Below are positions 8,694 to 24,109 of a DNA stretch of 64,000 nucleotides, one piece after another. The position numbers were made by a program, and so were the translations under genes. Source of the DNA: a virus (Duplodnaviria; Caudoviricetes); IMG/VR virus record IMGVR_UViG_3300025450_001231; one strand, written 5' to 3'. Numbering within the stretch: the first letter of the stretch is position 1; each line of letters opens with the position of its first letter. Under the pieces are notes generated by a model. The model made no database searches. It worked only from the letters and a program-made list of their open reading frames with translations, and was not told where the DNA came from.

Positions 8694-10931
8694 ATGCTAC
8701 AAAACAATCCAGACATTGACTCTATTATCGAAGTTGCTACAAAAATAGCACAAAGTAAAAACCACGAATATGTAACCTTGGAACATTTATTGTTGTCTAT
8801 GGTAACGTATCAGCCATTTACAGAAACTCTATCATCATTTGGTTGTATTGTTGACGAAATGCAAAGAGAAATAGACACATATTTAGACAAACAAACATAT
8901 TTGAGCAACAAAGGGTTCGACCCGGTTCCCAAGAAAACTCATAGCCTAGAACGTGTATTCAACCGTGCATTCACACAGGTACTGTTCAGTGGCAGACAAA
9001 CAATGCAATTGGTTGATTTGTATTTGAGTTTAATGAACGAAGAACGCAGTCACGTAAGATACTTTTTACTCAAGTACGGAGTCGAGCGTGCTGCATTTGT
9101 GGAACATTGGAATAAAGTCAACGATTCACCTAAAGATGGAAAAAGCAAAAGGAGCAGATCTGCAGTGGACGGTATTTTAGAAGAACATTGCGAAAATCTA
9201 AACGAGCAAGCCGAGCGTGGGGAAATTGATCCTGTTATTGGTAGAGAGCTTGAAATCGAAGAAATCACACAGGTACTGGCTAAACGTAATAAATCAAATG
9301 TACTAATGGTAGGCGATCCTGGTGTAGGTAAAACTGCTATTGCAGAAGGCCTTGCACGTAATATTGTTAACGGCAATGTACCTGAATATTTGAAAGGGTT
9401 CGTAGTTTACAATTTAGATATTGGCAGTTTACTTGCTGGTAGTAAGTATCGCGGCGAATTCGAAGAAAAACTCAAGGATGTTATTCGTGCATTGAATACC
9501 AAAGGCAAGTGTATTTTGTTTATCGACGAAGCACATCAAATGAAAGGTGCAGGCGGCGGAGCACAAAGTAGTGTGGACTTTGCTAATATGATTAAACCAG
9601 CACTTACCAAAGGACGTATTAAAGTTATTGCTAGTACAACGTGGGAAGAATATACACAAAGTTTTGAAAAGGATCGTGCACTAATGCGCAGATTCTATAG
9701 ACTAACTGTAGAGGAACCTACCCCAGCGGTTGCTAAAGATATTCTTAAAGGATTGAAAGTGCATTTTGAAGCGTTTCACGGTGGTATGATTACCGATGAA
9801 GCCATTAACTCAGCAGTAGATCTCAGTGTGCGTTATCAAACAGACAAACGCTTGCCCGACAAGGCAATTGACTTAATCGATACTGCGGCTGCAAAACTTA
9901 AAATTGTTGCCCCAGACTTTATTGTACGCAAGAGTCATATTATCGATACACTCAGCAAGTTTACCAAGATTCCAGTGGATCAAATGGATCAACAGGGCAA
10001 CAATAGTTTAGAAAAATTGGAACCCAATATCAAAACTAAACTGTTTGGACAAGATGCTGCAGTAGATGCTGTATTAGATAAAATTTATGTAAGCCGTGCT
10101 GGACTTAAATCAATTAACAAGCCTGTGGGCAGTTTCTTGTTCTTGGGCCCAACAGGTACAGGTAAAACTGAACTTGCTAAATTGTTAGCCGAAAACTTAG
10201 GAATGAAACTGTTACGCTATGATATGAGTGAGTATCAAGAAAAGCACAGTATTGCCAAGTTGATTGGTGCACCTCCTGGATATATTGGCTACGATGATGG
10301 CAATATCGGTGGCGGATTACTGATCAGTGATGTTGAAAAGAATCCTAACTGTGTTATCTTATTTGATGAAATTGAAAAAGCACACACTGATGTCAGTAAC
10401 CTGTTGTTAAGTTTAATGGATGAGGGTATTATTACCAGCAGTAACGGCAAAAAAGCAGACTGCAGAAACGCCATTGTTATTTTAACCAGTAACTTAGGTG
10501 CTGCAGACGGGGAAAGAAATAGCATTGGCTTTGGTAGAGATCTTGAGCGCAAAGGCGAAGACGATAAAGCAGTTAAAGATTTCTTTAAGCCTGAGTTCCG
10601 TAATCGTTTGGATGCAATTATTAAGTTTAACAAGCTGAATAAAGAAAGCATTAAGAAAATTACTATTAGATTTATCAATGAGATGAATGACCTATTAGGC
10701 AACAAACAAATTACTGTTGCATTAACAGAAACAGCATACGATTATGTTATCAAAGAAGGTTTTGATAGTAAAATGGGTGCAAGACCATTGAATAGAAAAA
10801 TTAATGATTTAATTAAAACTCCGCTAAGTAAAAAGATACTATTTGAAAATATTTCAAACAGCATAATCAGAGTTGACTATACTGATAAAATTGAATTCCA
10901 TATTGAAAATCAATTTGCACCAACAACCTAA
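8694..10931 (+). CDS. clpA: ClpA-type AAA+ unfoldase
   Basis: N-domain HEYVTLEHLL; NBD1 GDPGVGKT / LFIDEAH; NBD2 GPTGTGKTE / ILFDEIEKAH; KPEFRNRLD; MGARPL. Confidence 0.93.
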   Translation: MLQNNPDIDSIIEVATKIAQSKNHEYVTLEHLLLSMVTYQPFTETLSSFGCIVDEMQREIDTYLDKQTYLSNKGFDPVPKKTHSLERVFNRAFTQVLFSGRQTMQLVDLYLSLMNEERSHVRYFLLKYGVERAAFVEHWNKVNDSPKDGKSKRSRSAVDGILEEHCENLNEQAERGEIDPVIGRELEIEEITQVLAKRNKSNVLMVGDPGVGKTAIAEGLARNIVNGNVPEYLKGFVVYNLDIGSLLAGSKYRGEFEEKLKDVIRALNTKGKCILFIDEAHQMKGAGGGAQSSVDFANMIKPALTKGRIKVIASTTWEEYTQSFEKDRALMRRFYRLTVEEPTPAVAKDILKGLKVHFEAFHGGMITDEAINSAVDLSVRYQTDKRLPDKAIDLIDTAAAKLKIVAPDFIVRKSHIIDTLSKFTKIPVDQMDQQGNNSLEKLEPNIKTKLFGQDAAVDAVLDKIYVSRAGLKSINKPVGSFLFLGPTGTGKTELAKLLAENLGMKLLRYDMSEYQEKHSIAKLIGAPPGYIGYDDGNIGGGLLISDVEKNPNCVILFDEIEKAHTDVSNLLLSLMDEGIITSSNGKKADCRNAIVILTSNLGAADGERNSIGFGRDLERKGEDDKAVKDFFKPEFRNRLDAIIKFNKLNKESIKKITIRFINEMNDLLGNKQITVALTETAYDYVIKEGFDSKMGARPLNRKINDLIKTPLSKKILFENISNSIIRVDYTDKIEFHIENQFAPTT

Positions 10932-10940
10932 TAGACAGAA

Positions 10941-11678
10941 ATGGATAAATTGCACTGGACCCAATTAAATCCATCACTTGAAATTAAAAATACCAAGAAG
11001 AAGTTTTTCAATCGGTATCTTTATAAAGCAGTGGTGTTTATGCCAGCCGGTAGAATTATTCACGCGACTTCAAAAGAGTCAACTGACGCATTGTTGGAAA
11101 CAAGAAAAACCATTGCGTTTAGTAATAGAAATATAAATTGGGGCGGCAGTTGGCAAAAGCGTCAAGTTGAAACTATAATAAAACATCAAGGTTCAGCTGA
11201 ACAAATAGATTATTTTAGACAACTGACTATCAAATTAGGTGACGATTTTAAGTTTAGAATCGAAGAACCCTATATGTCTATATACGCACAAGATGAATCT
11301 GCTTTATATAAAATATTAATTTCGTCACCGTTGAAAGAACGAGTGACTGAATTTTATAGGCCTGAAAATCCCGAAGCTGAAAAAGTATTAAATCAAGGCG
11401 AAATCATTGTTAAAAGAAATACAGAGTACGAATACAAAGTTGTATTTCGTGAAATGTATTGGGGCAATGTAGCCGAAAAGAATCAAATATATGACTATTT
11501 AGAAAGTCTGGGCGATGTAGTTAAATTGACAAAAAGTTGTAGAAGTACACTTGCGTCAAAAAGATCCTGGTTTAACAGCATTTACTTTTATACCAAAGAT
11601 CCCAGCATATTGACATTCTTGAATTTGATTTCTCCGGGAATCGTATCAGGAATATATAAGCTGACGAAACTCGACTGA
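10941..11678 (+). CDS. Hypothetical phage protein
   Basis: 245 aa ORF. Confidence 0.7.
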   Translation: MDKLHWTQLNPSLEIKNTKKKFFNRYLYKAVVFMPAGRIIHATSKESTDALLETRKTIAFSNRNINWGGSWQKRQVETIIKHQGSAEQIDYFRQLTIKLGDDFKFRIEEPYMSIYAQDESALYKILISSPLKERVTEFYRPENPEAEKVLNQGEIIVKRNTEYEYKVVFREMYWGNVAEKNQIYDYLESLGDVVKLTKSCRSTLASKRSWFNSIYFYTKDPSILTFLNLISPGIVSGIYKLTKLD

Positions 11679-11704
11679 TAAATATTTGTATATTCAAGGA
11701 GCCT

Positions 11705-11881
11705 ATGATGGCAAAAATCTACGAAGAATCAATTACGATTAAATTAAGTGTATTGGAAAAAGACAACACGATTGCCGACAGACAATCGCTAGTAACCGAC
11801 GACATTACATCTGCATTAGAATCAGTAGTGGAAGAACTATTAAACGACAAATCTGTTGTCGTTGAAGTATCAACAAATTAA
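11705..11881 (+). CDS. Small hypothetical protein absent from the ORF track (58 aa, MMAKIYEESITIKLSVLEKD...)
   Basis: Late motif TAAATA at 11679-11684, SD AAGGAG, ATG 11705, TAA 11879-11881. Confidence 0.75.
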   Translation: MMAKIYEESITIKLSVLEKDNTIADRQSLVTDDITSALESVVEELLNDKSVVVEVSTN

Positions 11882-11897
11882 CCAAAGAAAGTAATCA

Positions 11898-12860
11898 ATG
11901 AGCAATAAAACTCCTCCAAAAGCTACCCAAGTACAACCAAAACTTACTGGGGCAACACCAATTCCAAAGCTTACAAAAGCAATTATGCCTGTACCAGGTG
12001 CCGCAAAAACACAACCGCAAGCACCAGCAGGTCAACAATTTGACTTTACAAAAGTACACGTACATTTCGCAGTTCCTTGCTACGGTGGTATGGTTAGTGA
12101 ACCAACAATGACCAGCTTCTTGAGATTTACTCTTATTGCAGCCAAAGTAGGTCTTAACTGGAGTTTGGACACAATGGTTAATGAATCATTGGTAACTCGT
12201 GCACGTAATAACTTGTGTGCTAAGATGATGACCAACGATGCAGCAACACACTTTATGTTCATTGATGCTGACATACGTTTCGAGCCAGAAGCTATTTTTG
12301 GTATGATTGCAGCTGATAAAGATGTTATCGGCGGATTGTATCCTAAGAAATCATTGCCTATTGACTATGTTATTAACTTGAAAAACGGCGGACGTATTGA
12401 AGGCCCAATCTTCCAAGTTGATACACAAGGTACTGGATTCTTGTTGTTCAAGAAATCAGTATACAAGCAGTTGTGTGACAATCATCCAGAGTGCAAATAC
12501 GTTGATGACATTGGTTTAGGCAAGCAGTTTGAGCCATTTATGTACAGTATTTTTGATACTATCATCGACGAGCGTGGTCATTATTTGAGCGAAGACTGGA
12601 CATTCTGCCGTCGTTGGCAAGCAATGGGTGGCGATATTTGGGCCGATAGCCGTGTATTGTTGAATCACATTGGACACTATGAGTTCAAGGGCGATTTGGC
12701 AGCACTTGAGCGTAAAGGTCTCAAGCGTGTTGACACCAGCACTCCAGAGGGCAAAGCTGCAGTTGAAGCACAAATGGCCGCAGCGGCTGCTGCACAAGCC
12801 GAAGCTAATGCTGCCAGTGCATCTGCTGATGCTCCACAAACAGACGAAACCCCAGCTTAA
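11898..12860 (+). CDS. GT-A fold glycosyltransferase-like protein
   Basis: AVPCYGG, ESLVTRARN, HFMFIDADIRF (DxD), YLSEDWTFCRRW, HIGHYEF; disordered ends. Confidence 0.75.
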   Translation: MSNKTPPKATQVQPKLTGATPIPKLTKAIMPVPGAAKTQPQAPAGQQFDFTKVHVHFAVPCYGGMVSEPTMTSFLRFTLIAAKVGLNWSLDTMVNESLVTRARNNLCAKMMTNDAATHFMFIDADIRFEPEAIFGMIAADKDVIGGLYPKKSLPIDYVINLKNGGRIEGPIFQVDTQGTGFLLFKKSVYKQLCDNHPECKYVDDIGLGKQFEPFMYSIFDTIIDERGHYLSEDWTFCRRWQAMGGDIWADSRVLLNHIGHYEFKGDLAALERKGLKRVDTSTPEGKAAVEAQMAAAAAAQAEANAASASADAPQTDETPA

Positions 12861-12870
12861 CTAATTTGGC

Positions 12871-12904
12871 TAAATACTGCAATATAATTAAATTATTGCA
12901 GTAT
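12871..12904 (+). promoter_or_regulatory. Late promoter overlapping an 11-bp hairpin that covers the start codon
   Basis: TAAATA 12871-12876; arms ATACTGCAATA (12874-12884) and TATTGCAGTAT (12894-12904); ATG at 12903. Confidence 0.7.
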
Positions 12905-15122
12905 GTACTCATTTGAACTATTTGAAGCTGGCGCAACCCGTATAGTTGTAACCTACCCCGGACGTTTTCAACCCTTCCATCAAGGGCACGCCGGGGTTTT
13001 TCACGCACTCCAAAAAAAGTTTGGTAATGACAATGTGTATATTGTTACCAGCAATGATCAAAGCAGTGCCAAAAGTCCTTTTAATTTCAGCGACAAATAT
13101 CAGTTAATGACTGCTGCAGGTATCCCTGCCAATCATATCATTGAAGGCAATCAAATGTACAAATTGCCCGAAGGTTTTGATCCTGAGACTACAGTATTTG
13201 TTACTGCAGTGGGTGCACCTGATGCCAAAAGATTAAACCCCGATTCTTATCTAAAGCGTGATAATGCTGCTTCAGGCAAAAAAGCCGGAGATCCCAGTTA
13301 CTTTTTAACTTGGGGGAAGAATGATGCAATGCCTGCTATGGAACACGGCTATGTAGTTGTAGTTCCTGAAATCAAAAAATCAATTGATATCGACGGACAA
13401 ACATACGATGTTAGCCATGGCACTGAATGCCGTAATCTATGGCTAAGACTAAAAGATAACGAAAAAGGTCGTGCAGAATTCCTAAAACAGTTGTATGGCC
13501 GTGCTACACCAGAATTAGCACACATATTTGATAAAATACAACCTGTTAGTGAAGATGAAATGCCTGACGGCGATTACAGTACTAGTCCTATACACGGCGG
13601 TAATGTAAGAGAAGATGCCAGTGGATATATTCCTAAGAATAAAAAAGAAGCACGCGATCCACGTTGGAGCAATGCACTAACCGTAGACGTGCATCCAGAC
13701 ACTCCAATGAAGAACCTACGTGCATTTAAGTTAGCAGAAACTGTCAACCCAGACGATTTTCATATACACGACACTGACAAGCTGGATCGTGTATTGGCAC
13801 ATTTGTGTAAAATGATTATACAAGGTCAACAGGATCGTCCGGACTACTACGGTATGGTTGCATCGGCAGTAATTGATCCAAAAAATCAAATTGCATTGGG
13901 TATAAATTATCTTGCCGACGAAGGCAAACGTGTGCACGGCGAACGTGCAGCTATAGACGAGTATAATAAAAAATACGGCGAGATTCCCGAAGGCAGTATC
14001 ATTGTTACTACACTAAGCCCTTGTTGCAGTCCAATGGATGAGCGTTACGGTGAAAGTTGCACAGACCTTATCAATGATACCAATGTACACAAAGTTTACT
14101 GTGGTTACAAAGATCCTTCACAAGAAGAAACAATTAAAAAATTATTCCATACTGCAGCTACTCGAAATGATAAACTACAGTCGTTATGCAAAGACTTTGC
14201 CGATACATTCTTGGGTGTAATCAGCGAAGACGAAGAAGGCGGCCGTGCAATGATGGGCAAGTTGGCTGACACAGGTAAGATTGTGCGCATACTGCGTAAG
14301 CAATATTCAGTGCCGTTTAGCCAAGAAAAAGAATGGTTATTGATTGATACTGACCCTGAAAAAGGCAATCGCGGCCTAGGTATCAAGTGGGTACCTGCTA
14401 GTACCAAGTTTACTTGGATTCGTCCTTTTAGAGAAAAGATTGACGAAAACAAAGACAGTTGGCAAAAACATAAAAATCCACGTGCAGGTGGAATGAGTAA
14501 AAAAGCAGTAAAAAGCTATCGTCGTAGTCATCCAGGCAGTAAAATCAAAACTGCAGTTACCAAATCTCCTAAGAAGATTAAAAAAGGCAGTGCAGATGCC
14601 AAACGTCGTAGTAGTTTTTGTGCACGTATGAAAGGTATGAAAAAGAGTCGTACCAGTGCTAAAACCGCACGAGATCCTAACAGTAATATAAACAAAAGCC
14701 TGCGTCGTTGGCATTGTAACGAAAGCATCAACTCTAATAGTGATGCAGAGTTTCCAAATTTATTGGCCAAGTTTTTGCCTATAGCAATGCAGGATTTGAA
14801 ACTTGATAAGTTGCCTAAAATCAAGTTGGAGAAACACATTCAAGACAAAGACGGACAAGCAACTTTTGGACGTTTTGTCAACAACACCTGTACTATACAC
14901 CTTGCTATAGCTGATCGTCATCCAGTGGATATTTTACGCACTTTGGCACACGAATTAACACACTACAAACAATATACACTCAATGAACTAACTTCTGGCA
15001 GTGGACGTACTGGTAGTCCTGAAGAAAACCAAGCACACGTTATGGCGGGTATTATTATGCGTCATTTTAACAAGAGTTTTCCCACTGGAGTTAACTTAAC
15101 TCCAATTGAATTAAAATCTTAA
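12903..15122 (+). CDS. Multi-module protein: HIGH nucleotidyltransferase + Zn deaminase + basic DUF6321-like module + HEXXH metallopeptidase
   Basis: YPGRFQPFHQGH; RVHGERAAI...TTLSPCC...ESC; AGGMSKKAVKSYRR...RRSSFCARM...SLRRWHC; ILRTLAHELTHYKQ. Confidence 0.75.
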   Translation: MYSFELFEAGATRIVVTYPGRFQPFHQGHAGVFHALQKKFGNDNVYIVTSNDQSSAKSPFNFSDKYQLMTAAGIPANHIIEGNQMYKLPEGFDPETTVFVTAVGAPDAKRLNPDSYLKRDNAASGKKAGDPSYFLTWGKNDAMPAMEHGYVVVVPEIKKSIDIDGQTYDVSHGTECRNLWLRLKDNEKGRAEFLKQLYGRATPELAHIFDKIQPVSEDEMPDGDYSTSPIHGGNVREDASGYIPKNKKEARDPRWSNALTVDVHPDTPMKNLRAFKLAETVNPDDFHIHDTDKLDRVLAHLCKMIIQGQQDRPDYYGMVASAVIDPKNQIALGINYLADEGKRVHGERAAIDEYNKKYGEIPEGSIIVTTLSPCCSPMDERYGESCTDLINDTNVHKVYCGYKDPSQEETIKKLFHTAATRNDKLQSLCKDFADTFLGVISEDEEGGRAMMGKLADTGKIVRILRKQYSVPFSQEKEWLLIDTDPEKGNRGLGIKWVPASTKFTWIRPFREKIDENKDSWQKHKNPRAGGMSKKAVKSYRRSHPGSKIKTAVTKSPKKIKKGSADAKRRSSFCARMKGMKKSRTSAKTARDPNSNINKSLRRWHCNESINSNSDAEFPNLLAKFLPIAMQDLKLDKLPKIKLEKHIQDKDGQATFGRFVNNTCTIHLAIADRHPVDILRTLAHELTHYKQYTLNELTSGSGRTGSPEENQAHVMAGIIMRHFNKSFPTGVNLTPIELKS

Positions 15123-15152
15123 TAAATATAGTATCATCTGGGATAGTATACA

Positions 15153-15659
15153 ATGAACAGCAAAGATTTTTTACACGAAGGTATTGCGGAAGACGCACAT
15201 CAAATGCACATGGATCACGAAGTGCAAATGGCCCGCGAAGAGCTTTATCACGCTGCAGAACACGCAATTGCTCTGCACAAAATGTTGCAACACGTTAGCG
15301 AGCAACAGGGATTGGAAGGCTGGGTAAGTGCTAAAATTACGCTAGCCAATGACTATTTGAATACAGTCCGTGAGTATATGGAATACCAGTTAATGACACA
15401 GGACTCAACTCCTACAGATATGAGCCAAGAAGAACCAATCGACGAGCGCAACTCCATTGTTACCAAGTTAGCTAAAAATCAATTGCGCGGACATTACAGA
15501 CACGGTGTTAGAGAAAATGCCAGTGGTGGTGCAAGCAGTGCAGGCAGTGTTGCTACTGTAGTCAAAGGCGGTAGTGGCAAAACAAATTTATTAGGCGGCC
15601 CAGAGTGGAATGGTCCTAATCCATTTAAGAAAACTATTAAGAAACGAGCTGCCAAATGA
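15153..15659 (+). CDS. Modular hypothetical protein (probable virion-internal)
   Basis: TAAATA at 15123-15128; helical module DHEVQMAREELY...WVSAKITLANDY and an ENASGGASSAGSVA module. Confidence 0.65.
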   Translation: MNSKDFLHEGIAEDAHQMHMDHEVQMAREELYHAAEHAIALHKMLQHVSEQQGLEGWVSAKITLANDYLNTVREYMEYQLMTQDSTPTDMSQEEPIDERNSIVTKLAKNQLRGHYRHGVRENASGGASSAGSVATVVKGGSGKTNLLGGPEWNGPNPFKKTIKKRAAK

Positions 15660-16396
15660 GTTCAATGAAGCAGTTATTGGAAGCAGTCGACAAATATACT
15701 TTTGCCGGTGAGCCCGAGCAAAAGCCTGGAGACCAAGTTCGAGGCACAGACAAAGCCAAGCCAAGAAAAGATCACCGTCATCCATTTGCTGGTAAGTTGG
15801 TGGGTGGATGCGAAGAAAGCATTATGCTTGAGCTGGACAAAACTGCCAAAGCTACTTCAATGATTCGTCGTGTCAAAGAAGCATACGAACAAGTTGAAAA
15901 TTCAGAACCCAAGGCAGCTCCTAAAGACACAGTTGCTAAAACTTGGAACCAATTGAATCGCCAAGAACGCACAAGCGGTGTTAAAGGTCGCACTATTTGG
16001 AATCCGAAAATTCGCAAATATCAAGTGGTGTTTGATGTTCCTGCAAAACCACAACAAGTTAAAGAATACGGTGCAACACCAGGTGCTCCCAGTACCACAG
16101 GTGGTGCACAAAACCCAGATGCACAAACTACAGCTGCAAATGTACAAAAATCAATGATGGCCAAAAATAATCTCAGTAAGATTGCATCGGTTGATAAGAA
16201 TATCAATCCACAACAGGCCAATCAAGCATTGATGGCAATGGGCAATAGTAAAAATACCAATACACCTATTACTGGTCCACAACTAAGACAAACCAAACAA
16301 CTGGCAGACTTGGTAGGCGATGCACTCAGTGATCCTACCAAAGGTAGCCAAGTTGCTAACTTATTGCAACAAGTAGCAAGAAAGCAAGGACAATAA
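15656..16396 (+). CDS. Modular hypothetical protein (probable virion-internal)
   Basis: 246 aa, ATGA-coupled; Gln/Asn/Ala-rich C-terminal module. Confidence 0.65.
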   Translation: MSSMKQLLEAVDKYTFAGEPEQKPGDQVRGTDKAKPRKDHRHPFAGKLVGGCEESIMLELDKTAKATSMIRRVKEAYEQVENSEPKAAPKDTVAKTWNQLNRQERTSGVKGRTIWNPKIRKYQVVFDVPAKPQQVKEYGATPGAPSTTGGAQNPDAQTTAANVQKSMMAKNNLSKIASVDKNINPQQANQALMAMGNSKNTNTPITGPQLRQTKQLADLVGDALSDPTKGSQVANLLQQVARKQGQ

Positions 16397-18393
16397 TGTT
16401 TATTAACGATTTATTTGATAACAAAAAAATACAAGAAGCTGCTAATGCTGCTCAACAGGCTGCAATTGCCATTAATATGAAAAAACATCATCAAAAGCCC
16501 AAGGATATGAAAGAGGCTGAAGTAGATGAAATGTTTGGTTTTATGAGTCCTAAGAAACCTAGTCCCACTGACTATGCAACAAAAGTAAGCAGTGCCCCTA
16601 AGAAGTTAACTAAACAAGACTACGACGAATTAATGAAGCAGTCAGAAAGACCAAAAGGAACACAGGTTGTATATCATAACAGAGATGAATATGTTAAAGA
16701 TATGCAAAGAAGAAATATCAAGCCAGCAACCATTGAAGAAGAAGATATTGCAGAAGGCGAACGCAATATGAGTCGTGCTGCTAAAGGTGTAATGAAATAT
16801 GGCAAGGATGGTATGAAGGCATTGGCCAAAGCAGGTAGAGAAGGTGCCAGCGACGAAAAATTAGACACTATACGTGACAAGTACGACCATTATAACGAAA
16901 GTGTAGCAGAAGATTCAGAAAAACGTTGTATGCAATGTGGTATGAAAAACTGTAGTTGTACACCAGGTAAATGCAAGTGTAAGCCTGTTGCAGGTTGGGT
17001 ACCAGGCAAAGGTTTTAAGAAGGCTATGGAAGAAGCTGCATTAAACGAAAAATGGAGTCAAAAATACAAGAGCAGTATTAATTGCTCACATCCAAAAGGT
17101 TTCAGTCAAAAGGCGCATTGTGCCGGTAAAAAGAAACACAATGAAGATATAACTATGGAAATGACCTGCCCTGATTGCGGTATGTGCCAAACACACGGCA
17201 ATCTTAACGAAATTAAAAAGGGTCAAAAAGATTCAAATGGATACACCAAATGTTGGCCTGGCAAACACGCAGAAGGTACTAAGAAATCTAGTGTTACAGG
17301 TAAACAAGTAAGAAACTGTGTACCAAACAAAGGTGTGAAGGAAGGCCATGCAGACCAACAACGCAAAATCTTTAAGAAGAATGGTAAGCCAGTAGGCGAA
17401 GTTGGTATTGACCGTGAATCAAGTCCTGGCAACGGCCAATGGTATATGAAATGTTATGCTTACGACATAGACAATGCGGGCTACGATTCATACGAAGAAG
17501 CCGTTGAAGAACTAAAACATTGCTTAAAGCAAGGTGTGGCGGAAGGTGGTGCTGAGACAAGTTGGTCTAATGACACAGATACGATTACACTACAGGATAT
17601 TTTAGAATTAACCAAACACATTAAACAAATAAATTTACCGATAAACGATAATCTAAAGAGTAAACTACTTCATTGGGAAGGTAACCCAGAAGAAATAGAA
17701 AGAGTTAATCAAGTAACGGTGTCTAATCAATTTCCTATTTTAATTATGGTAAATGAGCAAGGTCAAATAGAATGGATCCTTGATGGCAACCATAGACTAC
17801 ATAAAGCAATACAGTCCCAAGCAAAAACAATACCTGCTAAACTTATTAGACCCAACAATCTTAACGACAAAGCAAAGAAAATATTTAATATAAAAGAACA
17901 AGGTGTGGCGGAAGGCCATCCTGAGGACGACGATGATCACGAGTGTTATGATTGCCGCGGCACTGGCGAAGGCCAACACGAAGGAACCAGTTGCAGAACC
18001 TGTGGTGGTACTGGCGTAGCACGCCCAGATCACGAAGAAGATGATTCAGATTATGAAGAACGCTTAAATTATCGCAGAAGATTTAGAGAAAGTAAAATCT
18101 ATTATAATGTAGTAGGTACACCTGCTGCAGCATTGCGTGAACAGTTTGGTATGAGAAAAGACCGCAATGGTTGGTACTTGAAAGAAACTGCTGGCCGTAA
18201 GCGTATACTTGAGGCACACAAAGCATTTGGTAATCCTTTGACAGAAGGTATGAATCTAGCTGCTTATAATGGCAGTACTGCTATCATCGGCGACGGTAAT
18301 GCCATTAGTCCAGTGGGCAGTAATCCACGCAGACAACAAGAATTGATCCCTACACGAAATAGTAAAGCGAAGAAAAATGGAAGAATTAGTTAA
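16396..18393 (+). CDS. Cassette-like multi-module protein with Cys-rich modules, a ParB/Srx-like domain and a CxxCxGxG finger
   Basis: CMQCGMKNCSCTPGKCKC; KWSQKYKSSINCSHPKGFSQKAHC; CPDCGMC; KCWPG...NCVP; ILDGNHRL; CYDCRGTG...CRTCGGTG. Confidence 0.7.
   Translation: MFINDLFDNKKIQEAANAAQQAAIAINMKKHHQKPKDMKEAEVDEMFGFMSPKKPSPTDYATKVSSAPKKLTKQDYDELMKQSERPKGTQVVYHNRDEYVKDMQRRNIKPATIEEEDIAEGERNMSRAAKGVMKYGKDGMKALAKAGREGASDEKLDTIRDKYDHYNESVAEDSEKRCMQCGMKNCSCTPGKCKCKPVAGWVPGKGFKKAMEEAALNEKWSQKYKSSINCSHPKGFSQKAHCAGKKKHNEDITMEMTCPDCGMCQTHGNLNEIKKGQKDSNGYTKCWPGKHAEGTKKSSVTGKQVRNCVPNKGVKEGHADQQRKIFKKNGKPVGEVGIDRESSPGNGQWYMKCYAYDIDNAGYDSYEEAVEELKHCLKQGVAEGGAETSWSNDTDTITLQDILELTKHIKQINLPINDNLKSKLLHWEGNPEEIERVNQVTVSNQFPILIMVNEQGQIEWILDGNHRLHKAIQSQAKTIPAKLIRPNNLNDKAKKIFNIKEQGVAEGHPEDDDDHECYDCRGTGEGQHEGTSCRTCGGTGVARPDHEEDDSDYEERLNYRRRFRESKIYYNVVGTPAAALREQFGMRKDRNGWYLKETAGRKRILEAHKAFGNPLTEGMNLAAYNGSTAIIGDGNAISPVGSNPRRQQELIPTRNSKAKKNGRIS
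17530..17915 (+). repeat. 17-bp in-frame direct repeat CAAGGTGTGGCGGAAGG (QGVAEG) flanking the ParB-like module
   Basis: Identical copies at 17530-17546 and 17899-17915, 369 bp apart; a 14/17 copy at 17329-17345. Confidence 0.9.
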
Positions 18394-18811
18394 AGCTCTC
18401 AAAATTGCATTTAGTACTGAATTCAGTTTCTATTTGAAAAGTCACTACTTTCACTGGAATGTGGAAGGTGCAGACTTTTTTGAATATCATCAATTGTTTG
18501 AAGCTATCTATAGCGAAGTTTACGAAAGCATCGATCCATTTGCAGAAAACATTCGCAAATTAGGCAGTTATACTCCTGGCAGCTACACACGCCTAAGTAT
18601 GCTGACACAAATTGAAGACGAAACCGATATTATTCCTGCTAAAGCAATGATTGCAGAATTATTGGAAGATAATGAAAAAATAATCAAAGTATTAAAACTG
18701 GTGTTCGAACTTAGCGAGCGCGAACGCGAAGCTGGACTCAGCAACTTTTTAGCCGAAAGAATGGATGCACATCGCAAACACGGCTGGATGTTGCGTGCTA
18801 GCTTAAAGTAA
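18377..18811 (+). CDS. dps: Dps / ferritin-like DNA-protection protein
   Basis: HYFHWNVEG, FFEYHQLFEAIY, DPFAENIRKLG, HRKHGWML. Confidence 0.9.
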   Translation: MEELVKALKIAFSTEFSFYLKSHYFHWNVEGADFFEYHQLFEAIYSEVYESIDPFAENIRKLGSYTPGSYTRLSMLTQIEDETDIIPAKAMIAELLEDNEKIIKVLKLVFELSEREREAGLSNFLAERMDAHRKHGWMLRASLK

Positions 18812-18812
18812 G

Positions 18813-18887
18813 ACCTTGGCCTTAGGACCGGGAGGGCGGGTGCTGCCCAGAATGAAGGAATTCGCTACTCTTTTATTCCAAAGTGAC
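18813..18887 (+). ncRNA. Candidate structured RNA element of unknown class
   Basis: GC-rich intergenic island with stems GGGCGG/CTGCCC and GAATGAAGGA/TCTTTTATTC (10 bp with G-U) around the loop ATTCGCTAC; strand not established. Confidence 0.45.
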
Positions 18888-18888
18888 C

Positions 18889-18916
18889 TTGACTTTCTAA
18901 TTAAATATAGTATAAT
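18889..18916 (+). promoter_or_regulatory. sigma70-type promoter with nested late motif
   Basis: TTGACT-16 nt-TATAAT; TAAATA at 18902-18907. Confidence 0.7.
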
Positions 18917-18939
18917 CAACTATAACTTTTAATTCAATT

Positions 18940-20040
18940 ATGATCATTTGGTTCAACTGTAAAATTACCGACGTAAGACTCAACCCTAACGTAATCCCCC
19001 GATACAATCTGCGCAACGACAATAGATACGATATTGCAAAATACAGCTTTGCCAGTTACGCACCATTACTACCATTAACTACTAAATTTATTTTTAATTT
19101 AGAACTAGCAGATGCATTTGCCGGCCGTGAAGCAGATATGCAGGCCTGGTTAGAAAGTATCTTTCCAGCAGATAGACTTAGCATTCATTGGTATAGAGCC
19201 AACACAAAAGAACAATGGCAAGCAGTCAAAGACGAAATGGATCAACTGGACGATGATCTAGTGTTCCCAATGGGTAATGAAGATCATATTTTTATGGACA
19301 GCAGTATTGAGATTATGTCTCGAGGATTAGACCTATTGCTTGCAGATCCAGATCCTTTTGCAGTTATCGGCACTAGCCATTATCCTGAAAGTATTCGTGC
19401 TTCCTATTTGGGACACGGTGCATTGACTGAGTGTAAGTCATATTTGGTTTGGAATTTTCCCTGCAATGATGCAATTCGCATTATGAAAAAAGAATTTTTG
19501 CAGTATTACATTACAAACTTTCCAGTTACCACAGGTCCAGTATTTAGAACAGAAAATTGGAATTCAGTAATGTTGCCTGACAACACAATGTATACTCCTA
19601 TCAAAGAACAGTTTAGACATTTTGATGGATATCATCACGTGGGCATCAATGCAGAAACTGCTCCACCTTTGGAAATTCCTCCAGGATTTTTTGAAAGTGC
19701 AATAATTGTTCGTTATGGATTCGATGATAATGATGCTAACAGTATCAACATCAATCCATTGGCAAAGAATTTATACGCTGCAGATATCAACGGTGCTGAC
19801 TATAAATTTACACTACAAGATATGCCATTATTTTGGTTGCCTTATATCAAAGAAATATTGTCTGCAGACAACATTGATCATCAAGCAATGGCCGAAGCTA
19901 GAGATCGATACTATATAGATTTGGCAAGAGTACACTTTAATTGGCCACATTTTAATCTAAGATTTGATGACTCAAATCAAATACCTTATGATTGGATTAG
20001 TCCAGTTATGATGGTAACCGAATTTGCAGAAGTAGATTGA
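18940..20040 (+). CDS. Hypothetical protein, possibly glycosyltransferase-like
   Basis: 366 aa; DDDLVFPMGNEDHIFMD resembles a GT-A DxD region; no certain family. Confidence 0.55.
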   Translation: MIIWFNCKITDVRLNPNVIPRYNLRNDNRYDIAKYSFASYAPLLPLTTKFIFNLELADAFAGREADMQAWLESIFPADRLSIHWYRANTKEQWQAVKDEMDQLDDDLVFPMGNEDHIFMDSSIEIMSRGLDLLLADPDPFAVIGTSHYPESIRASYLGHGALTECKSYLVWNFPCNDAIRIMKKEFLQYYITNFPVTTGPVFRTENWNSVMLPDNTMYTPIKEQFRHFDGYHHVGINAETAPPLEIPPGFFESAIIVRYGFDDNDANSININPLAKNLYAADINGADYKFTLQDMPLFWLPYIKEILSADNIDHQAMAEARDRYYIDLARVHFNWPHFNLRFDDSNQIPYDWISPVMMVTEFAEVD

Positions 20041-20065
20041 CTTACTGCAGGTATTCCTGTACAAT
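20037..20065 (+). promoter_or_regulatory. sigma70-type promoter upstream of the dsbA-like/polB operon
   Basis: TTGACT-17 nt-TACAAT followed by SD AGGAG and ATG 20084. Confidence 0.75.
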
Positions 20066-20083
20066 AATTTTTTAGGAGAACTT

Positions 20084-20344
20084 ATGAGCGACCGTACATT
20101 CAATGGCGAGGCGAAAATTAAACTTACCCAATTAATCAATGAGGGTATGACTGTACTACAAGAAGTAGAAGATCTTACTGCTGGACTTAACGACACAGTT
20201 AAAGCAATCGCAGAAGAATTGGAAATTAAACCAGCATTGCTTAAAAAAGCAATTAAAATTGCACACAAGGCTAAATTAGGCGAGACCAATAAAGATCACG
20301 ACGAGCTTAATACTATTTTGGAAACTGTAGGTAAAACCCTTTAA
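20084..20344 (+). CDS. T4 DsbA / GapR-like small DNA-binding protein
   Basis: LQEVEDLTAGLNDTVKAIAEELEIKPALLKKAIKIAHK helical pattern. Confidence 0.65.
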   Translation: MSDRTFNGEAKIKLTQLINEGMTVLQEVEDLTAGLNDTVKAIAEELEIKPALLKKAIKIAHKAKLGETNKDHDELNTILETVGKTL

Positions 20345-20643
20345 TGGATCAAATATCAAATGCATTTGTCGATATTTATAAATGGGCCGAGCGAGATTAT
20401 CGCGAGTGGCCACTGAGGTTCTGTGTTGAAATATTGGCTTGGGCTATTAGTATTAGTTGTAGCCTCACCATGGCTATTACAGTACCCAATCCTCCTCTTT
20501 TGGCTCTTTACCCTGTTTGGATATCTGGTTGCGCTATGTACGGTTGGGCTAGTTGGACTCGTGGAAGCTTTGGTATGCTTGCTAATTACTGTTTGCTTGT
20601 TAGCATTGACGCTGTGGGGTTATTCAGGATGATCACTCAATGA
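20344..20643 (+). CDS. Small membrane protein
   Basis: Three hydrophobic segments. Confidence 0.65.
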   Translation: MDQISNAFVDIYKWAERDYREWPLRFCVEILAWAISISCSLTMAITVPNPPLLALYPVWISGCAMYGWASWTRGSFGMLANYCLLVSIDAVGLFRMITQ

Positions 20644-23318
20644 GTTACGTAGACGCATTATTTGATCGCAAAGGTGATCGCATACACATTGTAGAACGTG
20701 TAAATGGCGAACGGGTATACAAAGAGTATCCTGCCAACTATGTGTTTTATTACGATGACCCAAGGGGCAAGCACCGTACTATTTACGGCACACCTGTTAG
20801 TAGATTTACCACCAACAACGGTAAAGAGTTCCAAAAGGAAATGCGTATACAGGGTAATAAGCGACTATGGGAAAGCGATATCAAACCTGTATTCAAATGC
20901 CTTGAAGAAAACTATTTAGGTGCAGAACCTCCCAAGTTACATACTGCATTTTTTGACATTGAAGTAGACTTTGATCCTAAACGTGGATTTAGTCCAGTTA
21001 GCGATCCGTTCAATGCTATCACTGCCATCAGTGTGTATATGGATTGGTTGGAAAAACTAGTAACGCTGGTAGTACCTCCCAAAGGTATGAGCTGGGCCAC
21101 CGCAGAAGAAATTACTAAAAAGTTTGATGACTGCTATATCTTCGAACGTGAGGAAGATATGTTGGATACATTTCTTAACCTAATAGACGATGCAGATATC
21201 CTAAGCGGTTGGAACTCGGAAGGCTATGATATTCCCTATACCACTGGACGCATTACTCGTGTGCTCAGCAAAGACGACACACGCAGATTATGCTTGTGGG
21301 GACAATATCCCAATCAAAGAATGTTTGAACGCTATGGTACAGAAAGCGTAACATTTGATTTAGTTGGTAGAGTCCACTTGGACTATATGCAACTGTATCG
21401 CAAGTATACATATGAAGAACGCCACAGTTATAGCTTGGATGCTATTTCTGAATATGAACTAGGAGAACGCAAAACACAATACGAAGGCACATTAGATCAG
21501 TTGTACAACAAGGATTTTCCAACGTTTATTACTTATAATCGCCAGGATACCATGTTGTTATCACGATTGGATAAGAAACTAAGATTCTTAGACTTAGCAA
21601 ATACCATTGCTCACGATAACACGGTGTTATTGATGACCACAATGGGCGCAGTAGCAACAACAGAACAGGCAATTATCAATGAAGCACACAGTCAAGGATT
21701 GGTCGTACCTAACAGGAAACATAGAGAAGAAGAATCAGACACAGAGTCGCAGGCCGCAGGTGCCTATGTTGCTTATCCCAAAGTCGGAATGCACGACTAC
21801 ATCGGAGCAATTGACATCAACTCGCTCTATCCCTCGGCTATTCGAGCCCTTAATATGGGACCAGAAACAATTATTGGACAGCTGAAACCTGTAATGACTG
21901 ACCACTACATCAAAGAAAAGATGTCCAGTGGTTCTAGTTTTGCAGCTGCTTGGGAGGGATTGTTTGGCAGCTTTGAATACGAAGCAGTTATGCGTGGCGA
22001 TGCCGGAACTGAAATTACTGTTGAGTGGGAAGCGGATGGTACCAGTGATGTAATGAGTGCTGCTGATATTTGGCGACTGGTATTTGACAGCAACAAGCCT
22101 TGGACTATTAGTGCCAATGGCACATTGTTTACCTATGAGAAAAAAGGTATTATCCCGGGACTGCTAGAACGGTGGTATGCTGAACGTAAACAGATGCAGG
22201 CCAAGCTCAAAGAAGCTATTGCGGCCGGAGACAAGGCCGCAGAAGAATACTGGGACAAACGACAACTGGTTAAGAAGATTAACTTGAATAGTCTGTATGG
22301 TGCTATTTTGAATCCAGGTTGTAGATTCTTTGATCATCGTATTGGACAAAGTACTACACTAACTGGCAGAACTATTGCTAAACATATGGATAGTTTTGTA
22401 AATGAAGCTATCACTGGAAAATATGATCACGTGGGTGATGCTATTATCTATGGTGATACTGACTCAGTTTATTTTACTGCTTGGCCTGCTATCAAAGATG
22501 ATGTGGCAGCCGGTCGTATGGAATGGAATAAGGATACTTGTATTCAGGTATATGATAATATTGCTGATCAAGTCAATGATTCATTCCCAGGATTTATGGA
22601 ACGTGCTTGCCATTGCCCCCGTGAGATGGGCGCTATTATCAAAGGTGGCCGAGAACTTATTGCCACTAAAGGTCTTTTTATTAAAAAGAAACGATACGCA
22701 GTATTGATCTTTGACAAAGAAGGCAAGCGACAAGATGTTGGCGGTAAGCCAGGTAAAGTTAAAGCCATGGGCTTGGACTTGAAGCGTAGCGATACTCCCA
22801 AAGTAGTGCAAGACTTTTTAAGTGAAATCTTGTTAGATGTGCTAACTGGTACAGAAAAAGAAGACATTTATAAAAAGGTCAAAGACTTTAAGTTATTGTT
22901 CCAAGACCGCCCGGCTTGGGAAAAAGGCACACCCAAACGTGTCAACAACTTGACCAAGTATACTGCCGAAGAAGCAAGACTTGGTAAAGCCAATATGCCC
23001 GGACACGTTCGTGCTGCTATGAACTGGAACAATCTGAAACGTATGTACGGTGACAACTATAGTATGGGCATTGTTGATGGTATGAAGACCATCGTATGTA
23101 AACTCAAAGATAATCCACTGGGCTACACCAGCGTAGGATATCCCACTGATGAAACACACATTCCACAGTGGTTCAAAGATTTACCATTTGATGATAACCT
23201 AATGGAATCCACCATTGTAGATCAAAAGGTAGACAACCTGTTGGGAGTATTGAACTGGCAAATTGCCGAAAATACTGACATCAGTTCAACCTTTGCTGAT
23301 TTATTCACTTTTGAATAA
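20640..23318 (+). CDS. polB: Family B DNA polymerase (T4 gp43-like)
   Basis: ExoI FFDIEVD, ExoII GWNSEGYDIPY, region II DINSLYPS, region III KKINLNSLYG, region I YGDTDS, KKRYA. Confidence 0.97.
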   Translation: MSYVDALFDRKGDRIHIVERVNGERVYKEYPANYVFYYDDPRGKHRTIYGTPVSRFTTNNGKEFQKEMRIQGNKRLWESDIKPVFKCLEENYLGAEPPKLHTAFFDIEVDFDPKRGFSPVSDPFNAITAISVYMDWLEKLVTLVVPPKGMSWATAEEITKKFDDCYIFEREEDMLDTFLNLIDDADILSGWNSEGYDIPYTTGRITRVLSKDDTRRLCLWGQYPNQRMFERYGTESVTFDLVGRVHLDYMQLYRKYTYEERHSYSLDAISEYELGERKTQYEGTLDQLYNKDFPTFITYNRQDTMLLSRLDKKLRFLDLANTIAHDNTVLLMTTMGAVATTEQAIINEAHSQGLVVPNRKHREEESDTESQAAGAYVAYPKVGMHDYIGAIDINSLYPSAIRALNMGPETIIGQLKPVMTDHYIKEKMSSGSSFAAAWEGLFGSFEYEAVMRGDAGTEITVEWEADGTSDVMSAADIWRLVFDSNKPWTISANGTLFTYEKKGIIPGLLERWYAERKQMQAKLKEAIAAGDKAAEEYWDKRQLVKKINLNSLYGAILNPGCRFFDHRIGQSTTLTGRTIAKHMDSFVNEAITGKYDHVGDAIIYGDTDSVYFTAWPAIKDDVAAGRMEWNKDTCIQVYDNIADQVNDSFPGFMERACHCPREMGAIIKGGRELIATKGLFIKKKRYAVLIFDKEGKRQDVGGKPGKVKAMGLDLKRSDTPKVVQDFLSEILLDVLTGTEKEDIYKKVKDFKLLFQDRPAWEKGTPKRVNNLTKYTAEEARLGKANMPGHVRAAMNWNNLKRMYGDNYSMGIVDGMKTIVCKLKDNPLGYTSVGYPTDETHIPQWFKDLPFDDNLMESTIVDQKVDNLLGVLNWQIAENTDISSTFADLFTFE

Positions 23319-23325
23319 ACAGGCA

Positions 23326-23354
23326 TTGATTTTTCTAAATATATCATATACAAT
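23326..23354 (+). promoter_or_regulatory. sigma70-type promoter with nested late motif
   Basis: TTGATT-17 nt-TACAAT; TAAATA at 23336-23341. Confidence 0.65.
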
Positions 23355-23377
23355 AACACAACATTAAGGAAATTAAT

Positions 23378-24109
23378 ATGAAAGACCACCTTTTAGACAT
23401 CGTACAACATACACACAGCCTCGGAGGCATTGATATTGCTAAAGTTACAGGCACAGAAGATAATACCATTTTAGAAGCACTTTCTGAAAATCGTAGCATC
23501 ATTCTGCAGGCCAAATTCAAAGGACCAGTAGCAGATTTTATTGGAGTATTTGGTATGCCTAATCTCAGCAAACTAAACACTATTTTGAATATTCCAGAAT
23601 ACAAAGAAGACGCAGTTATTACTGTTACTCGCCAAACCAAAGGCGAAGATAATGTACCAGTAGGCGTACACTTTGAAAACAAAGCTGGTGACTTTAAGAA
23701 TGATTATCGTTTTATGGCAGAAGCTATTGTAAGTGAGCAATTGAAAAGTGTTAAAATGAAATCTGTTAAATGGATTGTAGACTTTGTGCCTTCTAATAAC
23801 AGTTTGCAAAGATTGAAATTCCAAGCCAGTGCTAATAGTGAAGAGCCTAATTTTTCTGTAAAAACAGAAGGCACGGATCTTAAATTTTACTTTGGCGATC
23901 ACAGTAGCCACGCAGGAGACTTTGTGTTCCAAAGCGGTATCAGTGGCAAGTTGACTAAAACTTGGAGCTGGCCAGTTGCAGCAGTTACTAGCATTTTGAG
24001 CTTGCCCGGTGACAAAACATTTAAGATCAGTGACGAAGGTGTTGCAATGATTACTGTAGACAGTGGCATTGCTGACTACAACTATATGTTACCTGCACAA
24101 ACAAAATGA
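23378..24109 (+). CDS. Probable sliding clamp (gp45/PCNA-like)
   Basis: 243 aa alternating beta/alpha pattern directly after polB, with a clamp loader in the window; inferred from size and context. Confidence 0.5.
   Translation: MKDHLLDIVQHTHSLGGIDIAKVTGTEDNTILEALSENRSIILQAKFKGPVADFIGVFGMPNLSKLNTILNIPEYKEDAVITVTRQTKGEDNVPVGVHFENKAGDFKNDYRFMAEAIVSEQLKSVKMKSVKWIVDFVPSNNSLQRLKFQASANSEEPNFSVKTEGTDLKFYFGDHSSHAGDFVFQSGISGKLTKTWSWPVAAVTSILSLPGDKTFKISDEGVAMITVDSGIADYNYMLPAQTK

Follow-up and report, generated by a model that had tools for sequence, protein, structure and literature searches.

In T4-type phages, the internal proteins IPI, IPII and IPIII and the Alt protein carry a short capsid-targeting leader that ends in a hydrophobic-x-Glu motif (PMC3012670, PMC9026906, PMC5694885), and it has already been stated that T4-like phages can use it to bring a variety of proteins into the head (PMC9026906). 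T4-type prohead proteases cut after Glu, and several sites per substrate are usual (PMC5694885, PMC9026906). Polyvalent proteins string 2–15 unrelated domains together in extremely variable architectures and are predicted to be delivered with the DNA (Iyer, Burroughs, Anand, de Souza and Aravind, 2017; PMC5512222), while in PeSL shuffling of T4-type phages conserved short flanks are the preferred sites of homologous recombination, so that gains and losses of units fall in acceptable positions (Arbiol et al., 2010; PMC2839356). Here we describe P0001, the 665-aa product of an open reading frame (ORF) at 16396–18393 (+ strand) of a 64,000-nt stretch of viral DNA (IMG/VR record IMGVR_UViG_3300025450_001231, hereafter the window). 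An earlier note on this DNA had read the protein as a string of short unrelated modules; this was confirmed for about ten modules and turned out to be more general than first thought, in that pieces of P0001 are common to more than 2200 proteins, in other orders and contexts. By its sequence relationships, P0001 appears to be one member of a large cassette-polyprotein pool of T4-related giant freshwater phages, in which a short in-frame linker is the junction at which modules are exchanged.

Compared with the T4 internal proteins, the system has a leader of the same kind (MKTYQEFIAE/A in T4; MRAQEFITE/G and MKINEIISE/Q here, with a slash marking the predicted cut), a cargo that is likewise small, soluble and highly diverse, and relatives that encode a T4-type S77 protease. 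It differs in that T4 cargo comes from separate genes with one leader each, whereas here many units lie in one ORF with a repeated internal site, which is conserved at the DNA level and doubles as an exchange junction; its packaging and cleavage are, moreover, predicted. With polyvalent proteins it shares the many unrelated domains and the variable architecture (~10 modules in P0001, with order and content differing in >2000 relatives). A polyvalent-type ParB/Srx-like domain is weakly supported in P0001, and the HExxH, deaminase and nucleotidyltransferase domains are found in a neighbouring protein and not in P0001 itself. The modules here are, however, much smaller than polyvalent-protein domains and mostly without a Pfam family, and in the polyvalent-protein account the word "linker" does not occur, no shared junction sequence is given and built-in zincin peptidases are proposed for processing (PMC5512222). 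As with PeSLs, insertion, deletion and replacement map to a conserved flanking sequence, and where one phage has a unit between two copies, its close relative has a lone copy, as in the sister contig L001 and the window. Whole genes are flanked by PeSLs, which are ~100-bp promoter-terminator cassettes in intergenic DNA, whereas the sequence here is 17–18 nt long, in frame and translated, and an intergenic early promoter with a stem-loop terminator is not part of it; the resemblance to PeSLs is one of function only. The inner-body and ejection proteins of phiKZ, 201phi2-1 and SPN3US also come from giant phages, in which many head proteins are cleaved behind the Glu of A-X-E or S/A/G-X-E motifs, often several times per protein (PMC5694885, PMC9026906), but those cuts remove propeptides of paralogous structural or ejection proteins, and no universal linker or cassette exchange is described for them. 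In gp38 adhesins (PMC3157838), conserved in-frame glycine-rich segments of T4-type phages alternate with hypervariable ones, within a single folded domain with variable loops and not a string of independent modules. Full-text literature searches with the motif and related wording found no description of the linker system; the in-frame, translated and DNA-conserved junction that strings cargo units together is part of neither the T4 capsid-targeting, the polyvalent nor the PeSL accounts.

The linker is encoded by the 17-mer CAAGGTGTGGCGGAAGG, which, as the earlier note had seen, is present in two exact copies (17530–17546 and 17899–17915, + strand) and in a third copy with three mismatches (14/17 nt; 17329–17345, + strand). 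No further copies of CAAGGTGTGGCGGAAGG were found in the window, against a chance expectation of 0.04, and the three copies in P0001 are all read in frame, as KQGVAEG, EQGVAEG and NKGVKEG. In IMG/VR, the exact 17-mer was found in at least 118 stretches, many with 2–4 copies on one strand; among the matches listed, 157 of the 158 exact copies are in frame as QGVAEG, within open frames with a median of 500 aa, and the spacings between copies, as judged by eye, are all multiples of 3. At the peptide level, no 5-mer was found in more of the first 121 proteins than QGVAE (162 copies in 87 proteins), and only the linker-derived QGVAE, GVAEG and EQGVA, out of the 40 most widespread 5-mers, repeat substantially within proteins. 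Seven near-copies of the linker occur in three genes of a 338.5-kb IMG/VR contig (G004, rated 97% complete) whose PolB is 82% identical to that of the window.

The codons of the linker are unusual. GCG is used in 12/12 cases compared with a background of 10%, and GTG in 10/12 compared with 17%. From codon usage, the synonymous GTA-GCA and GTT-GCT versions would each be ~7–8 times commoner than the exact linker, whereas the frames with two or more linkers, among the matches listed, carry the exact 17-mer in at least 133 cases, the GTA-GCA version in 23 and the GTT-GCT version in 4; the scans for the synonymous versions gave 50 stretches each, so that their ratio to the exact-match count is approximate. 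These counts show that the linker is conserved at the DNA level beyond the needs of the peptide, including the rare codons GTG-GCG. Reciprocally, the diverged linkers around the ParB-like cassette keep the pattern [VMIL]-[ATSV]-E-[GADSN] (for example, VAES, VTEG, MAEG, VVEG and MVEG), and the retention of hydrophobic-small-Glu while the linker DNA drifted points to selection on the peptide. This degenerate-linker pattern would not be explained by a recombination patch alone and is unlike a flexible Gly/Ser/Pro joint; in composition, by analogy, it looks like the pattern of T4-type prohead-protease cleavage after Glu. The purine-rich linker was also considered as an internal ribosome-binding site and rejected, because there is no start codon at a usable distance and most cassettes are without a Met.

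Module boundaries were set independently of the motif, from the starts and stops of local alignments to 240 other proteins. All six homology-defined boundaries (residues 118–121, 170–173, 211–218, 314–317, 381–384 and 504–507) carry hydrophobic-X-Glu, the tripeptide with which, according to the earlier note, nearly every module ends. The motif is also enriched over P0001 as a whole: [ILVM]xE occurs 21 times versus 9.3 ± 2.7 in shuffled sequences (p about 5e-4), and [ILVM]xE[GDAS] 10 times versus 2.5 ± 1.5 (p about 5e-4).

The gain and loss of cassettes at the linker, likewise proposed in the earlier note, is strongly supported by near-isogenic contigs that break exactly at the 17-mer. One of them, L001, is 100% identical to the window over 10396–17546 and 17528–24000 (7 kb and 6.5 kb on the two sides), and carries between these flanks an extra 918 nt that encode two cassettes, 152 and 154 aa long and both with QGVAEG at the end; the extra DNA is bounded by the 17-mer. 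Linker copy 1 is thus an indel junction, and the difference is an insertion in L001 or a deletion in the window, the direction being indistinguishable. The extra cassettes lie at L001:7152–8050 (P0002 residues 385–690); the first starts SEQKYLWHGS and has no Pfam match, and the second has a Tat-type signal right after the linker (PF10518, 22.6 bits versus a cut-off of 22.7), which would need a free N-terminus. A second contig, L002, is 99.6% identical to the window up to 17545, within the same linker copy, and then unrelated, with downstream genes only 67–78% identical, as would be expected if two related phages had crossed over once at the linker. Supportively, module content is not fixed between orthologous loci: the syntenic slot in G004 holds a different, 661-aa polyprotein that has in common with P0001 only the last ~100 aa (47% identity) and the linkers, and in the G004 orthologue of the gene starting at 15153 the first 84 aa are kept (82% identity) and are followed by two extra cassettes after GVAEG and GVAEA linkers.

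The same junctions were recovered on a larger scale. When the DNA of 122 polyprotein genes was compared all against all, 230 internal ends of homology were obtained, of which 51% fall no more than 12 nt from the centre of a linker, compared with 4% of random points, and the median distance from endpoint to linker is 11.5 nt versus 128.5 nt. The sequencing runs that contain the stretch are freshwater and lake metagenomes, and contigs of four lake metagenomes diverge from the window at 17328/9 (the degenerate linker), 17526/7, 17545/6 (two to seven contigs per metagenome run), 17892–6 and 17914–6, with loose contig ends at 17914–17916 in linker copy 2; in one lake contig (run X11), 16742 is connected to 17201 by an IAED junction. 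A joint from 17545 to 17893, skipping 347, was rejected as a deletion allele, since its flanks of only 18–20 nt are the linker itself. The depth of single cassettes in lake contigs is 10–40 times that of the flanks at 17310–17537 and 17880–17993 of the window, the module at residues 318–384 reaches 74–383x compared with 2–10x for its flanks (lake runs X10 and X11), and depth is also raised over 16438–16521; the raised single-cassette depth implies that these cassettes also reside in other genomes, of higher abundance in those samples. Collectively, these comparisons of assembled sequences demonstrated recombination at the linker, in the form of insertion, deletion and exchange of modules.

The cassette pool is large. 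Pieces of P0001 recur in more than 2212 proteins when these are clustered at 90%, and in 3059 representatives at the 50% identity level, and in local BLAST its blocks appear in other orders, positions and companies. When 122 polyproteins were split at their linkers, 1–10 linkers per gene and internal cassettes with a median of 77 aa were obtained, which fall into about 220 families (162 singletons), most without a known family. Hydrophobic segments occur in 17/337 cassettes and net charge is near neutral to slightly basic; the modules are for the most part soluble. A Pfam search of P0001 and seven long polyproteins was almost empty, the exceptions being GNAT, NT5C and a Tat signal. Modules are also found as stand-alone small ORFs: the Cys-rich block at P0001 residues 203–255 is matched at 57–66% identity by short hypothetical ORFs in two cultured cyanophages, S-SM2 and P-TIM68, and this ~50-aa module in those two phages was the only match of a tblastn search against cultured phages.

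The cassette between the two exact linkers (residues 385–507, 17548–17916, + strand, ending EQGVAE/G) illustrates this mobility. The earlier note had called it ParB/Srx-like, and the call is weakly supported. In favour are a DGNHR motif that is invariant in 25 sequences of the cassette and a fold model (pLDDT 70) for which nearly all of the top ~35 Foldseek matches in the PDB are sulfiredoxin, ParB, Noc or KorB. The E-values of these matches are weak (6e-3 to 1, TM 0.3–0.4), as is the profile match to sulfiredoxin (E about 2), and the module in P0001 did not reach the Pfam threshold; for residues 385–500, the model may thus point to a ParB/Srx-like fold. The higher AT content noted by eye was borne out, GC being 0.32 compared with 0.39 for the window, and in 12 other contigs with a local GC of 0.35–0.49 the cassette keeps a GC of 0.32–0.35. 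It is flanked by linkers on both sides in about 60 proteins, with unrelated sequence outside. Across 12 IMG/VR contigs its DNA is 82–97% identical, with homology that begins and ends at the two linkers, and the phages differ far less in this cassette than in PolB. These patterns indicate that cassettes travel between phages.

Features of head targeting were found at the N-termini. Four consecutive genes of the window start MYSFELFE/A, MNSKDFLHEGIAE/D, MSSMKQLLE/A and MFINDLFDNKKIQE/A, so that the 14-aa P0001 leader with its IQE/A end and the three upstream leaders (LFE/A, IAE/D and LLE/A) all have the hydrophobic-x-Glu feature. The leaders of T4 (NC_000866) are MKTYQEFIAE/A (IPII and IPIII), MLKEQLIAE/A (gp22) and MAKINELLRE/S (gp24). 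Among the 76 polyproteins with a defined 5′ end, 25 N-termini match a strict T4-like capsid-targeting pattern, compared with 0.6 in shuffled sequences and 6/1418 at internal Mets; examples such as MRAQEFITEG and MKINEIISEQ are close to T4 MKTYQEFIAEA, and many other N-termini carry visible variants. In G004 and another relative, G002, the genes for an S77 protease (in G004 at 192411–192863, minus strand), a gp22-like scaffold and gp23 are arranged as in T4. At the N-terminus of their gp23, LLE/G is conserved with T4 and LAE/N lies near the position of the T4 mature N-terminus; the T4 gp23 propeptide has 65 residues (PMC5694885). The linker itself fits the T4-type rule, with a cut after Glu and a hydrophobic P3. 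As a separate observation, gp22-like scaffolds (L245:2093–3187 and L246:2641–3738) end in (I/L)KRLAGL, and similar tails (..RKLSGL, ..KELSGMKK and ..KKLAGLR) end several unrelated polyproteins (L045, L095, L097, L102 and L126). Such a tail might be a second head-binding signal; as a targeting signal it was rejected, since in G004 only the scaffold and one other protein carry it and none of the window ORFs does.

These results can be assembled into a mechanism. Each protein consists of a leader followed by a variable string of small modules, each ending in (K/E)QGVAE/G or a degenerate form. At the 17–18-nt identity patch of the linker, the general recombination and replication machinery of the phage crosses over or slips, and such crossover or slippage results in in-frame insertion, deletion or exchange of cassettes, between alleles of one phage as well as between phages ~70–80% identical in PolB. 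The leader would act like a T4 capsid-targeting sequence and bring the chain into the scaffolding core of the prohead, where a T4-type S77 prohead protease would cut behind the Glu that ends the leader and behind that of every linker. The small proteins set free in this way would remain with the DNA and pass with it into the host at infection, forming a variable repertoire of early-acting or counter-defence proteins comparable to T4 IPI. The earlier note had already pictured plug-in cassettes that are exchanged at the linker, packaged, cut and possibly injected. The exchange is strongly supported by the breakpoints, and packaging, prohead-protease cleavage and injection of the P0001 modules are plausible on the motifs described above. 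As a whole, a cassette polyprotein recombined at its linker, targeted to the head, cleaved and injected is the best explanation that we have, and we rate its chances as slightly better than even.

Several observations weigh against the packaging and cleavage of P0001. The strict leader pattern is present in only about a third of the polyproteins, and T4 gp21 prefers Leu or Ile at P3, not the Val of the linker. The neighbourhood of P0001 consists of replication-type genes (PolB, clamp and Dps) and not of head genes; no head genes were found in the window, and the protease and capsid evidence comes from relatives only. Three further related contigs, G001, G003 and G005, gave no S77 or gp23 match, an absence that is uninformative where contigs are possibly partial; for G003 (the IMG/VR contig behind L066; 342,865 bp, rated 99% complete, PolB 72% identical to that of the window), neither Pfam models nor the G004 proteins found gp23 or S77, which means either that completeness is misjudged in this lineage or that its head module has diverged strongly. 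Linkers are followed by signal peptides no more often than expected (2 observed versus 2.1 expected), and post-linker signal peptides were therefore rejected as general proof of cleavage, the Tat case and one Sec-like family being anecdotes. Evidence for late expression is weak, as TATAAATA is not enriched within the window. Enzyme cassettes (deaminase, GNAT and nucleotidyltransferase) could equally work in an uncleaved multidomain protein. Lastly, megablast of the locus against cultured phages gave no match, and by these searches the cassette-polyprotein system is in no cultured phage.

The best-fitting rival to cleavage and injection keeps the exchange and drops the cleavage: P0001 would be an uncleaved polyvalent multidomain protein, packaged or not, whose linker is merely a recombination-friendly joint homogenised by exchange. 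The linker DNA is conserved in excess of the need of the peptide, which alone could explain its persistence, phage polyvalent proteins are predicted to be multidomain units, some of them transferred unprocessed (PMC5512222), and the orthologous slot keeps the conserved C-terminal module like a fixed chassis. We nevertheless consider this rival unlikely, if a serious contender, because diverged linkers keep hydrophobic-small-Glu despite the drift of their DNA, the linker composition resembles T4-type cleavage sites and not Gly/Ser/Pro joints, N-terminal leaders end in the same motif, a post-linker Tat signal needs a free N-terminus, and modules exist as independent small ORFs. A true polyprotein could also be cut by another enzyme, either the zincin-type (HExxH) module of neighbouring or related polyproteins or a cytoplasmic protease, with the modules acting in the infected cell and never packaged. 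The 739-aa neighbour of P0001 indeed ends in HExxH, similar modules with HELVHH are found at the end of other polyproteins, Iyer et al. predicted that polyvalent proteins process themselves with such peptidases (PMC5512222), and the P0001 gene lies among replication genes. That P0001 is without a peptidase module of its own, that zincins are not known to prefer Glu at P1, that the leaders resemble capsid-targeting sequences and that the motif falls within the specificity class to which the S77 protease of the relatives belongs make this route improbable.

Two further explanations concern the origin of the mosaics rather than the fate of the protein. If the cassettes were selfish in-frame mobile elements, the ParB-like nuclease would cut empty linkers and copy itself in, and the polyprotein architecture would be a by-product. 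The ParB-like cassette is indeed the most widely spread one, with up to 97% DNA identity in unrelated contexts, and keeps its own low GC in genomes with a GC of 0.35–0.49. Homing, however, destroys its target site, whereas here two intact linkers remain after insertion; moreover, about 220 cassette families share the linker, most of them without a nuclease, and DGNHR is the only nuclease motif verified in a cassette whose fold evidence is weak, which leaves this explanation very improbable. That the mosaics are not real molecules at all, a short repeat having joined unrelated pieces during metagenome assembly, is hardly credible. All data are short-read assemblies and contigs do break at linkers, but a repeat of 17–19 nt is far below the final k of 141 (taken from the contig names), 157/158 listed copies are in frame, within open frames of median length 500 aa, identical architectures turn up again with different assemblers and in independent samples and studies, and L001 equals the window over 7 kb and 6.5 kb on its two sides.

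If the cleavage and injection steps of the cassette-polyprotein mechanism hold, uncultured giant phages keep a large and fast-changing arsenal of small injected proteins that need no promoter, ribosome-binding site or targeting signal per gene, since one leader loads the chain and one linker makes the modules exchangeable. More broadly, and with somewhat less than an even chance in our estimate, the T4-related giant phages of lakes may share a community-wide, integron-like in-frame cassette system, in which one short sequence would be recombination junction, protease site and, together with the leader, the device by which an exchangeable set of dozens of small proteins gets into the capsid and is then injected; if true, viruses would have here a way to evolve and deliver counter-defence cargo that has not been described before. 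The about 220 families from 122 genes offer a route to hundreds of candidate early-acting or anti-defence mini-proteins, ~17 nt of identity suffices as a natural in-frame recombination site, and a possible design principle emerges for packaging several cargo proteins in T4-type capsids.

Along P0001 (all features on the + strand), the N-terminal leader (residues 1–14, 16396–16437) ends in IQE/A and is like extended capsid-targeting leaders, such as MFVDDLFDQKTLTE/A. It is followed by a basic mini-cassette of the AQQAAIAI..KK..KPK type (residues 15–42, 16438–16521), which recurs after the leader or internally in other polyproteins; a ~25-aa version (AQQAAIAI..KK.G.KPK) stands directly behind the leader of many polyproteins (loci L108, L114 and L139), and another is found at the C-terminus of another G004 polyprotein, near 139.3 kb. 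The next module (residues 43–121, 16522–16758) has an IAE/G junction with homology breakpoints at 112–122, and the module after it (residues 122–173, 16759–16914) ends in VAE/D, where local alignments start at 167–168 and end at 172–175. Two Cys-rich modules follow, the earlier note having spoken of several in the protein. The first, read from the translation and homology breakpoints (residues 174–218, 16915–17049), ends in the motifs MEEA and LNE, and the second (residues 219–317, 17050–17346), which ends in the degenerate linker KGVKE/G, is the widest shared block, with a coverage of about 190/240 proteins, the highest of all P0001 blocks. DUF6321, which Pfam lists for many P0001 homologues, was considered for this second module and rejected, being a different, basic module that lies in the 739-aa neighbour and not in P0001. 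The module at residues 318–384 (17347–17547), ending in KQGVAE/G, belongs to cassette family 3 of the IMG/VR polyproteins.

Behind the ParB-like cassette, the translation shows an acidic module (residues 508–555, 17917–18060) with two DnaJ-type CxxCxGxG zinc-finger motifs (residues 517–524 and 533–540), where the earlier note had named one such finger; this module has no Pfam match. The C-terminal module (residues 556–665, 18061–18393) consists of a ~50-aa alpha/beta core (pLDDT >=90), LTE/G and a conserved disordered tail with an ISPVGS.PR.Q motif. It takes the C-terminal position in 7/7 other proteins that carry it, and its core has no significant structural neighbour in the PDB or BFVD.

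P0001 is the third gene of a tightly overlapping four-gene operon (15153–18811) on the + strand. The first gene (15153–15659) encodes a 168-aa protein with a capsid-targeting-like leader ending in EGIAE/D, the second (15656–16396) a 246-aa protein with the leader MSSMKQLLE/A, whose stop overlaps the P0001 start, and the last (18377–18811) a Dps/ferritin-like protein that overlaps the 3′ end of P0001 by 17 nt. Upstream of the operon lies the gene of the 739-aa polyvalent-type neighbour (12903–15122, + strand; leader MYSFELFE/A), which contains cytidylyltransferase-like and dCMP-deaminase-like domains, the basic DUF6321 module and a C-terminal HExxH (HELTH), and thereby resembles a classical polyvalent protein; its G004 orthologue has a different module content. 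The PolB of the window is ~50% identical to those of Sinorhizobium phage Phosso and Agrobacterium phage Atu_ph07, and the source of the window appears on this basis to be a T4-superfamily giant phage. A few genes upstream of the operon, the window (8694–10931) encodes a ClpA/ClpB-type double-AAA+ unfoldase of 745 aa (phrog_4871, "ATP-dependent protease").

The operon is preceded, at a distance of about 25 nt, by an ATAAATA motif (15122–15128, + strand) that is like a T4 late promoter. It is found at an equal distance upstream of the tail-fibre genes starting at 49946, 54469 and 55656 (minus strand), which is a hint, suggestive only, of late expression of the operon. The TAAATA core is also present 25–40 nt upstream of many genes, including the ClpB-like, clamp and fibre genes (gene starts 8694, 12903, 18940 and 23378 on the + strand and 48555 on the − strand), and may be the general middle or late promoter of this phage.

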